A stretch of 64,000 nt of DNA from Escherichia phage EP02SG, in the sequence record PQ301181; one strand, 5' to 3'. This document shows positions 11,774 to 17,172 of this stretch, piece by piece. Position 1 is the first letter of the stretch; the number at the start of each line of letters is the position of its first letter. A program made the position numbers and the translations under genes. Under the pieces are notes generated by a model. The model was not told the DNA's origin and made no database searches. It saw nothing but the letters and a program-made list of their open reading frames with translations.

Positions 11774-12199
11774 TTATTTAAATTTAATTTTCTGAAGTGC
11801 ATCAATTGCAGCCAAACGCCCTTGTTCACTTTTAACTGTAATGACCACATCGCCTGATACGATCACCGAACCATCAACAAATTCTATAGAGCCTTTTTTG
11901 AAATCGACAGCTGTATCTGATTCCGGAACTTCTTCAAAGAATTTAAATTCTGCACCATAAAGCAGAATATCACCTTGCATACTATGAATAGTTCGGCCAT
12001 AATCGCCTACGGCTTCTACAGCAATAACCGAAACGCCGTAACCAATCATCTCTTCCACAATAAAATCTTTAGACAATAAAGTAGTATGCAGATTAGTATT
12101 AAGACGTTTACCAGTCGTATTAAGAATTCTCAAGAAATTATCTTCCTGTCCTTTGATAATACGATATTTCTTACCAACTTCAAAACCTTTAAAAGCCAT
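11774..12199 (-). CDS. hypothetical protein (141 aa)
   Basis: Track ORF followed directly by C(UUCG)G terminator hairpin. Confidence 0.5.
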   Translation of the reverse strand: MAFKGFEVGKKYRIIKGQEDNFLRILNTTGKRLNTNLHTTLLSKDFIVEEMIGYGVSVIAVEAVGDYGRTIHSMQGDILLYGAEFKFFEEVPESDTAVDFKKGSIEFVDGSVIVSGDVVITVKSEQGRLAAIDALQKIKFK

Positions 12200-12383: not shown

Positions 12384-12794
12384 TTATTCCTTAAAATGTG
12401 CTTTCAACATTTGATACAAAGACCATGCCTGGTCATTATTTTCGATAGTAATCGTCATCACAGGAAATTCAGACAATTCTTCAAGTTCACCAGAATCTTG
12501 CTCTTCGGACGCTTGATATGGATTTTCAACTTCGTCAAAGAACTCTGCTTCATTCGTGGAGAGCCAGATAAAGTTTTCATCAAGGATATCACCGCCTGTT
12601 GCGTATCCAACCGTGCCAGTAGATGTCACAATTTTAGTAGGACGACCAAGATGGTCAACATCTAATACTTTAAATGGTTCCATGCCAAGACGTCGTGCAT
12701 AAATCCCATTATCAGTGTGGTCTTTAATAAACTCTTCTTGGGCACGTTTATCTATAAATTGGTACCATGAGTTAACGCGGAATTTATTAGCCAT
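12384..12794 (-). CDS. hypothetical acidic protein
   Basis: Track ORF 12384..12812 trimmed to MANKFRV; its ATG overlaps the stop of the upstream ORF (TAATG). Confidence 0.5.
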
Positions 12795-13078: not shown

Positions 13079-13603
13079 TCATTTTAGCAAAATAAAATCA
13101 ACTTGTTCTGCCAATGAACGTCTAAACATTAATTGACAACTTCCGAGGATGAAATCAGGTGCTTCATAGACCGCGATGTAGTATCCTTTAGCTTTCAAGA
13201 GTTCAACATCCACCTGGTCATCAAACCATGCATAAACCGCGTCAACACTTTCAAATCCAAAATAGAACCCTTGGGCCCAATCTTCACTCAATTCAAATGT
13301 GTGCTCAATTCTATAGTATCTTAAGATATTTTGTTCAAGGAGTTTATCTTCATTTACTGTAGGACGATTAGGAACATTATAGTTGTCGCCGTGATGGTAG
13401 AAGTTACCTGAGATTATTCCATGTTTATCAAGGAACTCCCATGTTTCTTCAGAGTTGTCGGTGCCCGACCATCCGTATGGCGAACGAGGTTCTTTATTCC
13501 AAGAGGTTTCCCAAATTCTGACGGCTTTACCATCTTCGATAGCAATTCCTGGTAATGATTCACGTTGAGTACAAAAACTACGTTCTACGCGGTAAACTAA
13601 CAT
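13079..13603 (-). CDS. hypothetical protein (174 aa)
   Basis: Track ORF; GAGGAG SD; early promoter 13630-13658. Confidence 0.5.
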   Translation of the reverse strand: MLVYRVERSFCTQRESLPGIAIEDGKAVRIWETSWNKEPRSPYGWSGTDNSEETWEFLDKHGIISGNFYHHGDNYNVPNRPTVNEDKLLEQNILRYYRIEHTFELSEDWAQGFYFGFESVDAVYAWFDDQVDVELLKAKGYYIAVYEAPDFILGSCQLMFRRSLAEQVDFILLK

Positions 13604-13662: not shown

Positions 13663-14082
13663 TTATGCGAAAGCAGCTTGGATATATTTTTTAATTTGGA
13701 ATTCAGGAACTACCATGAACTGACCAGCGAAAACGATGTTATAAAGCTTAACACCGTCTTCAACCCATTGGTCACTAATGAAGCCGGCGATTTGCTTAGT
13801 TTTCCACGGCGTTCCATCAGTTGCCGAAGCAATAGTGAATTCATGGTCTTTTTCAACAGAAACTGATCTGCATAGTCCCCATTTGAACGCTTTTTCTTCT
13901 GGTTCAATGAATTGGCTTGAGACGTAGCCAATATTACCATTAGCATCACGAACTTTAACTTGGTTACGACCAAAAACCGGATCACTCACAGAAAGAACTT
14001 CAACCAACTTCCCGGCAACTTTAGAGCGAGAAGCAACAGATACATATACGTAATCACCTGTAGAGAGATTTACAATATTCAT
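13663..14082 (-). CDS. hypothetical protein, paralog family member A
   Basis: 139-aa track ORF; shares C-terminal block GFISDQWVEDGVKLYNIVFAGQF.VVPE with the next two ORFs. Confidence 0.5.
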   Translation of the reverse strand: MNIVNLSTGDYVYVSVASRSKVAGKLVEVLSVSDPVFGRNQVKVRDANGNIGYVSSQFIEPEEKAFKWGLCRSVSVEKDHEFTIASATDGTPWKTKQIAGFISDQWVEDGVKLYNIVFAGQFMVVPEFQIKKYIQAAFA

Positions 14083-14091
14083 AATAATTCC

Positions 14092-14547
14092 TTAAGCTTT
14101 ACGAGGAGACACATAGCGAGTGATTTCAGATTCTTTAACAACTCGGAAGTCACCTAAGAATACGATATTGTATAACTTTTCACCATCTTCAACCCATTGG
14201 TCACTGATGAAGCCGCACATAATATCAGTTTTGTTTGGATAACCATATTCGTCGATGAAATCAAATTCTTTATCAGTCCGGAATTCAACGCCTTTGCAAA
14301 GGGCCCATTTGAACTGTACATTAGGTTCAGTAGAAGCAAAATGAGCGCTCACATGAGTTTCCAAGAATTTAGGACTTACGTAAGCGTACTGAGTTTCAGT
14401 TTTTCCAGAACTAGGAATGATTCGAACTTTAACTTCTTTAACACGTCCAGTACCATTAGTACGAAGTCCTACCACTTCAACTAGACGACCTGCAGCTTTA
14501 GAACGAGATGCAGACGATACACGCTTAATTTCACCAATAGTAATCAT
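14092..14547 (-). CDS. hypothetical protein, paralog family member B
   Basis: 151-aa track ORF; N-term RSKAAGRLVEVV and C-term GFISDQWVEDGEKLYNIVFLGDFRVV shared with 13663-14082. Confidence 0.5.
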   Translation of the reverse strand: MITIGEIKRVSSASRSKAAGRLVEVVGLRTNGTGRVKEVKVRIIPSSGKTETQYAYVSPKFLETHVSAHFASTEPNVQFKWALCKGVEFRTDKEFDFIDEYGYPNKTDIMCGFISDQWVEDGEKLYNIVFLGDFRVVKESEITRYVSPRKA

Positions 14548-14611
14548 AATTTCTCTCTCTCTTTGTTTAAATTGAATTCATTATACTCCATCCATCCTTG
14601 GATGTACAACA

Positions 14612-15148
14612 TTAATTAAGGATATTAACCACAGCACTACGTGGAACTACACTAAAATCACCTGCATGAACAACGTTCAGAAGTTCAACACCGTCTTCAA
14701 TCCACTGATCAGTTACCCATCCATTTACTGGACCTGCGAACGGACGTCGAATTGAAACATATTTACACAACAAATCAGTAGGCTCAATAGGCTTAATCAG
14801 AGTACCGTACATACAAGCGATATCCATATCAATACAGATATCTTTAACGGGTTCTACTTCTTTAATCAACAGTTCAAAGTCGGTGCTTGGAAGGGCGGTA
14901 GTAGAAATTGTACCATATGAATTTTTAATTTCTAAGAATAACCAAGGGCCTTCAACTTGTTTGATGAAGTTAACAATAGTGAAACTATTACCTTGAGTGG
15001 CACCTAAAATTTCACAAAACTTTTCATAAGCTCGCACTGAAGCACCATACCAGTTGATTTGTTTTTCATCTTTCAGGATGTAAGTAGCCGTTGTATTGAT
15101 ATTCATAATGTTTTCCTGTTTGGTTAAGATAGAAAGATTATACTCCAA
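14612..15148 (-). CDS. hypothetical protein, paralog family member C
   Basis: 178-aa track ORF; C-term GWVTDQWIEDGVELLNVVHAGDFSVVP matches the family block; own early promoter. Confidence 0.5.
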   Translation of the reverse strand: MEYNLSILTKQENIMNINTTATYILKDEKQINWYGASVRAYEKFCEILGATQGNSFTIVNFIKQVEGPWLFLEIKNSYGTISTTALPSTDFELLIKEVEPVKDICIDMDIACMYGTLIKPIEPTDLLCKYVSIRRPFAGPVNGWVTDQWIEDGVELLNVVHAGDFSVVPRSAVVNILN

Positions 15149-15166
15149 CCATCCTTGGTTGTAAAC
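15137..15166 (-). promoter_or_regulatory. T4-type early promoter with palindromic spacer
   Basis: rc: GTTTAC-AACCAAGGATGGTTGGAG-TATAAT; CAACCA/TGGTTG inverted repeat; variant copy at 14580-14610. Confidence 0.55.
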
Positions 15167-15171
15167 TGGTT

Positions 15172-15849
15172 TTATCGCTGTTTTACACTTAACGGGTCAG
15201 GATTCTCAGGGACATCTTCAAGGCCAAGCGCATAACGCTGAGCATATTTTAACATCAAAATATCTTTAGCACAATCGTGAATACTATCATGGGCAACGAA
15301 TCCTTTTAGCGTACCCATCGGTAATGGACACATACTTAATCCTCGTGTCAACGAGTAAGCTTCGATTGCTGTACGAATATCACGTTGAGCCCAGAATTTA
15401 ACCGGTTCTAATTTATCAGTATCAATATCTGGTTCAAGAACACCTTCATCACGATAGAGATCACGAATCAAATCTACCAAGATCGGGAAGTCAAAGCTCA
15501 TACCACGGCACCACATCTGTGATTTCCATTGGTCAACTTTATTAGCTCGGCAATAGTCTAAAAAGATTTTAATGCCTTCAAGCGTAGTGACATCGTCTTC
15601 AGACGGAGCCAAGTTTTTACGTGCTTCAGCTGATTGTTCTTTCCACCATTTCATAGTGGTTTTAGCGAAAACTCGCTTCCCTTTCTGAGAAGCTAAATTA
15701 AATTTAATTCGTTTACCTCGTTGAACAAGTTCTTCAAATGATTCAACAACTTCAGGGTCGGAATTATATGCAATAACCGCAAGGTCAATAACAGCCGCTT
15801 TTGATGTATTGCCGAATGTTTCAAAATCTATAATAACATCAGTGCTCAT
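15172..15849 (-). CDS. dexA: exonuclease A (DEDDh 3'-5' exonuclease)
   Basis: 225-aa track ORF; N-term IIDFETFGN...AVIDLAVIA and later HDSIHDC match remembered T4 DexA; precedes dda as in T4. Confidence 0.85.
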   Translation of the reverse strand: MSTDVIIDFETFGNTSKAAVIDLAVIAYNSDPEVVESFEELVQRGKRIKFNLASQKGKRVFAKTTMKWWKEQSAEARKNLAPSEDDVTTLEGIKIFLDYCRANKVDQWKSQMWCRGMSFDFPILVDLIRDLYRDEGVLEPDIDTDKLEPVKFWAQRDIRTAIEAYSLTRGLSMCPLPMGTLKGFVAHDSIHDCAKDILMLKYAQRYALGLEDVPENPDPLSVKQR

Positions 15850-15858
15850 AATTTTCTC

Positions 15859-17172
15859 TCAAATAAAATGGACGTCAAACCGACCACGAGTTGTGCCGAC
15901 ATACAATAACTGTTTAGCTAATTCTGAATCAGCATAATGGATACACGGTGTATAAACAAAGGCCGTGTCAACAGACATACCCTGGGCCTTATGGAAGGTT
16001 GATACTGGTAGTGCCTTCACCTTAGTGAACATACGTTTAGCATCCCAGAATTCGCTCCATGGAGCTTTACCACCTTTATTCCAAAATTTGTATGTTTCTG
16101 CGGTCTTAGCCAAAAACAAATTGAATTTATAAAGCTCTTCTTCAGAAGAAATAACCTTTATATCTTCGCGGATATATTCTTCATCATCCCCATATGTTTC
16201 TACTGTAAGATTCCAGTATCGTATCATATATTCGCCTGAAACACCACGTGCTTTAACGAATGTAGACGTTTCTACAGCATCTCGAATACGAACGAATTGA
16301 CCGTTATTGAAAAGCATTTCGGTCATATTTTTACCATCTAGCTTATATGTCTTAGTAAACGGCTCTTGTAGAACAATGACTTCGTCTTTAATAAATGGTT
16401 TTTCTGTTTCAAGAAGTTTTCGTCGAATAATTGAATTTAACTTGTCCACCGACTTATTTGTGAATGCCATCATTCGATTTTCGAAAAGGTCTTCAGGAGT
16501 TTTAACGACGTTAAAATAGTTCATCATATATGATTTAAGGTCTGTATATCCATGAACACCATGTCCATCAACTACTTTATCATAAATCCATTTGCCATTA
16601 CGAATATCAGTCGCAACATCAATAATTGGTGCGTTGCTACGTTTAACTTCTGTAAGGTTGCATTGCACGAAGTCTTTGTGAGTGAAGAAAGGACTTAGAT
16701 ACGCAGTTGATTCGCCTGGGTCTACCGGACGAATCTGACATCGGTCGCCGATTCCAATTACTGTACACCATTTAGGGATACTAGCTAACATTATTTTAAA
16801 CAGAGAACGGTCGCACATTGACGCTTCATCAAATAACAGTACACGGCACAAGGCTAAGTCTGGAACCTTTTTCTGTTCAAACAATACGTTTTCTTCGTAT
16901 GTAGTTGGGTTGATTTTAAGAATGCTATGAATAGTCGATGCTTCTTGACCAGCGAGTTTGCTTAGAACCTTTTTAGCAGCATGTGTAGGGGCTGCTAAAA
17001 TAATACCTGATTCTCCAGAAGAAATAAGGGCTTCAACGATGAATCTAGTAAGGGTTGTTTTACCTGTACCAGCGGGCCCATTAATAGTTACGTGATGTTT
17101 CTTTTCTTTAATAGCGTTCATAACAACGTTGAAGGCGTTTTTCTGGCCTTCAGTCAAATCATCAAATGTCAT
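15859..17172 (-). CDS. dda: Dda DNA helicase (SF1B)
   Basis: 437-aa track ORF; MTFDDLTEGQKNAFNVV...TINGPAGTGKTT Walker A, near-identical to remembered T4 Dda. Confidence 0.9.
   Translation of the reverse strand: MTFDDLTEGQKNAFNVVMNAIKEKKHHVTINGPAGTGKTTLTRFIVEALISSGESGIILAAPTHAAKKVLSKLAGQEASTIHSILKINPTTYEENVLFEQKKVPDLALCRVLLFDEASMCDRSLFKIMLASIPKWCTVIGIGDRCQIRPVDPGESTAYLSPFFTHKDFVQCNLTEVKRSNAPIIDVATDIRNGKWIYDKVVDGHGVHGYTDLKSYMMNYFNVVKTPEDLFENRMMAFTNKSVDKLNSIIRRKLLETEKPFIKDEVIVLQEPFTKTYKLDGKNMTEMLFNNGQFVRIRDAVETSTFVKARGVSGEYMIRYWNLTVETYGDDEEYIREDIKVISSEEELYKFNLFLAKTAETYKFWNKGGKAPWSEFWDAKRMFTKVKALPVSTFHKAQGMSVDTAFVYTPCIHYADSELAKQLLYVGTTRGRFDVHFI

Follow-up and report, generated by a model that had tools for sequence, protein, structure and literature searches.

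A putative motB.1-motB-motB' block in Escherichia phage EP02SG and the C-terminal domain shared by its products

Results

Three tandem genes of the motB family

In the genome of Escherichia phage EP02SG (PQ301181), three tandem open reading frames (ORFs) are found on the minus strand between positions 13,663 and 15,148 of the window, the whole stretch of 64,000 nucleotides (nt) that was analysed. A first-pass annotation made from the sequence alone had described them as paralogs of 139, 151 and 178 amino acids (aa), and all three, designated here ORF1, ORF2 and ORF3, are present. It did not recognise that they belong to a named and published family (Pfam PF17613), of which phage RB69 carries two motB genes and one motB.1. 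Taking family membership, synteny and homology-inferred function jointly, we consider the locus, with a probability of about 0.8, to be the motB.1-motB-motB' block of a Mosigvirus (RB69-like) T-even phage (Table 1).

The PF17613 profile ('motB', 'Modifier of transcription') was scored over whole proteins with its hidden Markov model, for which the gathering cut-off is 25 bits. ORF1 (75.2 bits), ORF2 (131.1 bits) and ORF3 (36.4 bits) all lie above it, and the match of ORF3 covers only profile positions 75-153, corresponding to the C-terminal domain (CTD). ORF2 is 48% identical to the 162-aa T4 MotB, itself a PF17613 protein, over its full length (E 4e-43) and matches phrog_1671 (E 5e-64), which identifies it as the predicted MotB orthologue. 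ORF1, with 37% identity to T4 MotB, is labelled 'MotB-like protein' in phage mobillu and RB69p010 in RB69, and by the same kind of evidence is a second, more diverged MotB copy specific to Mosigvirus-type genomes (motB'). ORF3 is 38% identical to T4 MotB.1 over 134 aa (E 5e-26), matches phrog_2333 over residues 1-164 (E 1e-81), and is the putative MotB.1 orthologue. The features of MotB proper ('Category 1' of Patterson-West et al. 2021, PMC7827196), namely a KOW-like N-terminal domain (NTD) with SRSKAAG(K/R)LVEV and a CTD with FKW…DQWVEDG.KLYN, are found in ORF1 and ORF2 and not in ORF3, whose NTD differs. ORF3 displays those of the MotB.1 subfamily ('Category 2' of the same study): full-length similarity, a non-KOW NTD and the CTD sequence PTDLLCK…DQWIEDGVELLN.

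The C-terminal block G(F/W)(I/V)(S/T)DQW(V/I)EDG…N.V, on which the proposed paralogy had been based, is significant in all three proteins. Pairwise BLASTP gave E 7e-33 for ORF1 and ORF2 (44% identity over 146 aa), E 4e-11 for ORF1 and ORF3 (17/29 identical in the C-terminal block) and E 3e-10 for ORF2 and ORF3 (16/36 identical). When ORF3 was shuffled 200 times, the best ungapped 29-mer against ORF1 had a mean of 7.6 and a maximum of 12 identities, compared to the 17 observed. Alignment also confirmed the N-terminal segment ASRSK(V/A)AG(K/R)LVEV common to ORF1 and ORF2.

As for ORF3, the gene itself stands, while its extent has to be revised. The 178-aa reading assumed a TTG start at 15148. 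Homologues begin with MNINTT… (P0044 is 164 aa, and the coding sequence in mobillu is 495 nt), and the TTG extension contains the -10 hexamer (15142-15137) of the promoter-like site of ORF3 itself. The ATG at 15106, giving a protein of 164 aa, is therefore the most likely start.

The three genes had also been thought to have an early promoter each. This agrees with the promoter-like sites that we found for ORF3, directly following the dexA stop codon, and for ORF2. For ORF1, a consensus scan of the upstream region including the end of ORF2 revealed no promoter of its own. Preceded by an AAGGAA ribosome-binding site, ORF1 starts 9 nt past the ORF2 stop codon and presumably shares the transcript of ORF2. 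We also noticed that the motB.1 and motB sites (15137-15172 and 14580-14611) are nearly identical in spacer and -10 element, CCAAGGATGG(T/A)TGGAGTATAAT. This likeness exceeds what the consensus needs, and might mean that promoter and gene were duplicated together or that early promoters of this subtype are conserved.

Genome context and comparison with T4 and RB69

The region matches more than 100 Mosigvirus genomes (for example vB_EcoM_JQD51, PhAPEC2 and mobillu) at 96-98% identity and is collinear with RB69. Both RB69 and mobillu contain the block as annotated genes, and RB69p010-p013 are the same genes in the same order with ~97% nucleotide identity. The arrangement is already known. The paralogy is recorded in Pfam and in PMC7827196, whose section 3.2 describes a common CTD behind different NTDs in MotB and MotB.1, extra copies in several phages and, in the close relative RB69, two motB genes, one motB.1 gene and a 29-aa peptide with a match to the CTD core.

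The block sits within the early, non-essential dda-dexA…cef-goF region, and the order of transcription on the minus strand is dda, dexA, ORF3, ORF2, ORF1, a 174-aa ORF, and then cef, goF and a 39.2-like zinc-ribbon gene. T4 MotB has in common with ORF1 and ORF2 the two-domain plan, the SRSKAAG and DQWVEDG motifs and the dexA-cef early neighbourhood. T4 possesses one motB, whereas this genome has two in tandem, ORF1 being the copy with a shorter linker and without net basic charge. The gene order also differs, dexA-motB.1-motB-motB'-motB.2 here and dexA-motB.2-motB.1-motB in T4, so that the putative MotB.2 orthologue lies downstream of the motB genes in this phage and upstream of them in T4. 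T4 MotB.1, assigned to an LSm-like-fold family together with GoF and Frd.2 (PMC12152347), has the same NTD type and CTD as ORF3. Unlike T4 MotB.1, ORF3 has an extra linker segment of ~20 aa containing DMDIACMYGTLIKP. In addition, the PHROG matches of the 141-aa ORF listed in Table 1 fit the published GoF/MotB.1/Frd.2 family and suggest a further member in this region.

Table 1. Features of the motB region in the window (all on the minus strand).
Feature	Coordinates	Strand	Remarks
dda	15859-17172	-	
dexA	15172-15849	-	
Promoter-like site for motB.1	15137-15165	-	sigma-70/T4-early type, TTTACA-17-TATAAT; consensus scan 11/12
Putative motB.1 orthologue (ORF3, 164 aa)	14612-15106	-	acidic; non-KOW NTD, linker with DMDIACMYGTLIKP, MotB.1-type CTD
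D-x-D-[IVL]-A-x-M-Y motif in ORF3	14807-14830	-	residues 93-100 (DMDIACMY)
Shared CTD core in ORF3 (PTDLLCK…DQWIEDGVELLNVVHAGDFSVVPRSAVVNILN)	14615-14782	-	from alignments and tblastn; equivalents at ~14095-14310 in ORF2 and ~13666-13890 in ORF1
Promoter-like site for motB	14580-14608	-	TGTACA-17-TATAAT; consensus scan 10/12; probably serves ORF1 too
Putative motB orthologue (ORF2, 151 aa)	14092-14547	-	basic KOW/SH3-like NTD, disordered linker (residues 66-74), MotB-type CTD
Putative second motB copy, motB' (ORF1, 139 aa)	13663-14082	-	two-domain plan of ORF2, shorter linker, near-neutral charge
Promoter-like site for MotB.2 orthologue	13657-13630	-	
Putative MotB.2 orthologue (174 aa)	13079-13603	-	34% identity to T4 MotB.2; phrog_1106; no Pfam match
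GoF	12384-12794	-	phrog_622 match
141-aa ORF	11774-12199	-	phrog_622 match; weak phrog_2333 match (E 1e-3) over the N-terminal part

Distribution of the shared C-terminal domain

The domain shared by the three proteins comprises ~55-75 aa at their C-terminal ends and is restricted to T4-like phages. A profile built from the three CTDs was searched against 1.84 billion proteins and retrieved 28 representatives of clusters at 50% identity. Two of these, the long repeat proteins P0252 and P0254, were clearly unrelated and were rejected as spurious, and the sequences of the remaining 26 all contain the conserved core. The search brought up no relatives from cellular organisms or from outside the T4-like group. 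With tblastn, the core was found at 1682 places in 780 phage records; among the records listed there are three places per genome in Mosigvirus, mostly two in Tequatrovirus and one in Klebsiella phages. Family alignments revealed invariant D, W, G, N and V residues.

At least four kinds of N-terminal region precede the domain: KOW-like, MotB.1-type, another barrel type (proteins of 177-183 aa) and double-module proteins (245-252 aa). Between different NTD classes the CTD is ~80% identical. We also found chimeric genes. P0025 combines an ORF2-type front with an ORF1-type back, P0255 joins a MotB.2 start to a MotB.1 end (43 aa), and P0011 is chimeric as well. Together they point to recurrent unequal crossover and deletion among the tandem genes.

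These data bear on the possibility that ORF1, as a duplicate of motB, is redundant, plays no role of its own and is decaying. ORF1 has no promoter-like site that we could find, its NTD has lost the basic charge (net +1), Tequatrovirus genomes such as T4, with two CTD places each, lack it, and fusion proteins such as P0025 indicate that two copies can collapse into one. On the other hand, its frame is intact, and many clusters and genomes conserve it at a length of 139 aa (P0047-P0070). The ratio of nonsynonymous to synonymous substitution rates (dN/dS) of ORF1 against RB69 is 0.14, with a dS of 0.28. Decay is accordingly a very unlikely explanation. In the same comparison dN/dS was 0.14-0.20 for all three genes, from small counts, and purifying selection appears to act on all of them.

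Predicted fold and charge

Structures were predicted with AlphaFold2 for ORF2 and for the CTD of ORF3, with predicted local distance difference test scores (pLDDT) above 85 in both models. The ORF2 model (alignment of 77 sequences, pLDDT 86.8) consists of two all-beta domains, residues 7-57 and 86-145, with a disordered linker between them. The ORF3 CTD model (residues 93-164, pLDDT 85.6) has the order b1-b2-b3-b4, a 3-10 turn and b5. In a structure search against BFVD, all matches below E 1e-3 were family members and generic small barrels came after them, and a PDB sequence search with ORF2 gave nothing useful (best match E 0.7).

The domains differ considerably in charge. In ORF2 the NTD has a net charge of +7 with an isoelectric point (pI) of 10.4 and the CTD one of -4 with a pI of 5.1, the whole protein having a pI of 8.83. 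The corresponding net charges are +1 for the NTD and -1 for the rest of ORF1 (0 overall), and -2 and -5 in ORF3, whose overall pI is 4.66. The CTDs in the window have pI values of 4.4-5.8.

From HHpred, the CTD has been proposed to be an oligonucleotide/oligosaccharide-binding (OB) fold of the cold-shock-like kind (PMC7827196), in which case all three proteins would bind nucleic acid through the CTD and the NTDs would modulate this binding. The short helical turn in our ORF3 CTD model is situated between b4 and b5, an SH3-like pattern. In OB folds, a helix is found between b3 and b4. Neither such a helix nor OB structural neighbours were observed for this domain, and the acidity of the CTDs in the window, together with the overall pI of 4.7 of ORF3, also argues against a nucleic-acid binder of this type. 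We thus regard the OB reading as unlikely. Judging from the models, an acidic SH3/Tudor-like barrel describes the CTD better than a DNA binder of OB fold does. The domain resembles the SH3-like small beta-barrels (Tudor, chromo, PWWP, BAH and KOW) in fold class only, a sequence relationship being undetectable.

Extra bases in motB.1 of the T4 and RB69 records

In the T4 reference (NC_000866/AF158101), MotB.1 is a protein of 119 aa ending in DQWIGRWR*, and most of the CTD is missing. In the +1 frame the sequence goes on with LEDGVELLNVVHAGEYSVVPRSAVVAILN*, the remainder of the CTD in intact form. A single additional G within the DQWIEDG codons causes the truncation (T4 NC_000866 stretch L001, 2643-3151, minus strand; compare 14612-14740 of the window). 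Programmed frameshifting was considered for the +1 frame and rejected: compared with the reference, 13 other records of T4, T4T, RB55 and RB59 match the motB.1 region over a length shorter by one base. Both of those that were translated, the resequenced T4 records MT984581 and KJ477684, lack the extra G and encode a MotB.1 of 143 aa with the full CTD.

The truncation very probably extends to the experimental literature. In PMC12152347, motB.1 was obtained by gene synthesis, NC_000866.4 was cited and a 13.8-kDa product was reported, in agreement with the mass of the 119-aa form. It is therefore very probable that the heterologous assays of that study used a protein without the conserved end of the CTD. 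A frameshift is mentioned neither in PMC12152347 nor in PMC7827196.

The RB69 record contains a second case. The motB.1 gene, intact with 164 aa in the window, is split there into RB69p013 (132 aa) and RB69p012 (29 aa) by two extra T's (NC_004928 stretch L003, 3877-4373, minus strand), the removal of which restores 164 aa. The possibility that the frameshift is common to the relatives of RB69 was rejected: of the 15 records listed, only the two from RB69 match over all 241 nt, and the match of the 13 other Mosigvirus records covers 239 nt. On sequence grounds, the orphan 29-aa peptide of RB69 is the out-of-frame tail of motB.1.

Discussion

Our analyses indicate that EP02SG most probably carries the motB.1-motB-motB' block known from RB69, in which ORF2 and ORF1 place a common CTD behind a KOW/SH3-like barrel, and ORF3 places it behind a different NTD, of the type for which an LSm/SH3-like barrel with a relationship to GoF and Frd.2 has been reported in T4 MotB.1 (PMC12152347). 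What is known of T4 MotB gives an indication of function. T4 MotB is toxic to E. coli (PMC6070864, PMC7827196), binds DNA irrespective of its sequence and whether or not it is modified, co-purifies with H-NS and StpA and doubles the burst size (PMC6070864), and changes the DNase I footprint of H-NS with 75 host genes up-regulated, about one third of them H-NS-regulated (PMC7827196). By homology, ORF2 and probably ORF1 would be made early and coat DNA non-specifically, altering the seating of H-NS and StpA on the DNA. H-NS-silenced genes would thereby be de-repressed and the burst size modestly raised. A host-takeover role, one of the two that the first-pass annotation had suggested for such tandem early paralogs, is supported for ORF2 by this homology (48% identity to T4 MotB).

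The other suggested role was that of anti-defence factors, which would have diversified in an arms race against the immunity of the host. In its favour, the genes are early, non-essential and present in several copies, and their domains are shuffled, all of them features common among anti-defence loci. As H-NS is a xenogeneic silencer, its antagonism could also be viewed as counter-defence (PMC7827196). We found no such activity of MotB or MotB.1 in the literature searched (PADLOC and anti-defence libraries were not searched). Moreover, the conservation of the CTD at ~80% identity across NTD classes and the dN/dS of 0.14-0.20 indicate purifying rather than diversifying selection. The suggestion gains no support from these results, and we consider it quite improbable.

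Returning to the MotB-like host-takeover role, charge and fold suggest how the two domains might divide the work. The basic NTD (pI ~10 in ORF2) would be the DNA-binding part, the acidic and highly conserved SH3/Tudor-like CTD would serve all members as a protein-contact or oligomerisation module, and MotB.1-type proteins would reach the same partner with an N-terminal module that is acidic and of another kind. A short motif may be involved. D-x-D-[IVL]-A-x-M-Y is found in 93 of ~125 family proteins with a MotB.1-type CTD and in 0 of 125 with a MotB-type CTD. Its position is variable among the family proteins P0144-P0253 (N-terminus, mid-protein or linker), it is modelled with low confidence in ORF3, and it may be a linear interaction motif. 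Taking these points a step further, we tentatively propose, and regard as rather doubtful in this complete form, that the CTD is a docking or oligomerisation module and not the DNA-binding part, that KOW-type MotB proteins, as DNA binders, and LSm-type MotB.1 proteins act through it on a common partner or on each other, that the D-x-D-[IV]-A-x-M-Y motif is part of the interaction, and that MotB.1 has seemed inert so far only because the T4 construct tested (119 aa) lacked the second half of the module.

Several points weigh against the interpretation developed here. The function of the Mosigvirus copies is argued from homology to T4, and that the NTD binds DNA and the CTD a partner is an inference from net charge and fold only. 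The CTD of T4 MotB is slightly basic (+1), and according to the authors of PMC7827196 either MotB domain could bind DNA. ORF1, with a net charge of 0, may not bind DNA as proposed for ORF2. A T4 ΔmotB.1 mutant has a normal burst size and latent period (PMC12152347). As for the promoter-like sites, they are consensus matches only, and their number in the region equals the shuffle expectation (10 versus 9.7).

The paralogy itself adds nothing new, and it is the corrections to annotation and fold that should be useful to researchers working on T4. The SH3/Tudor-like view of the CTD redirects the domain mapping of the interplay between MotB and H-NS. In addition, the T4 reference mis-states MotB.1 as a protein of 119 aa, and the negative findings of the only study on MotB.1 function may not hold for the natural protein of 143 aa.
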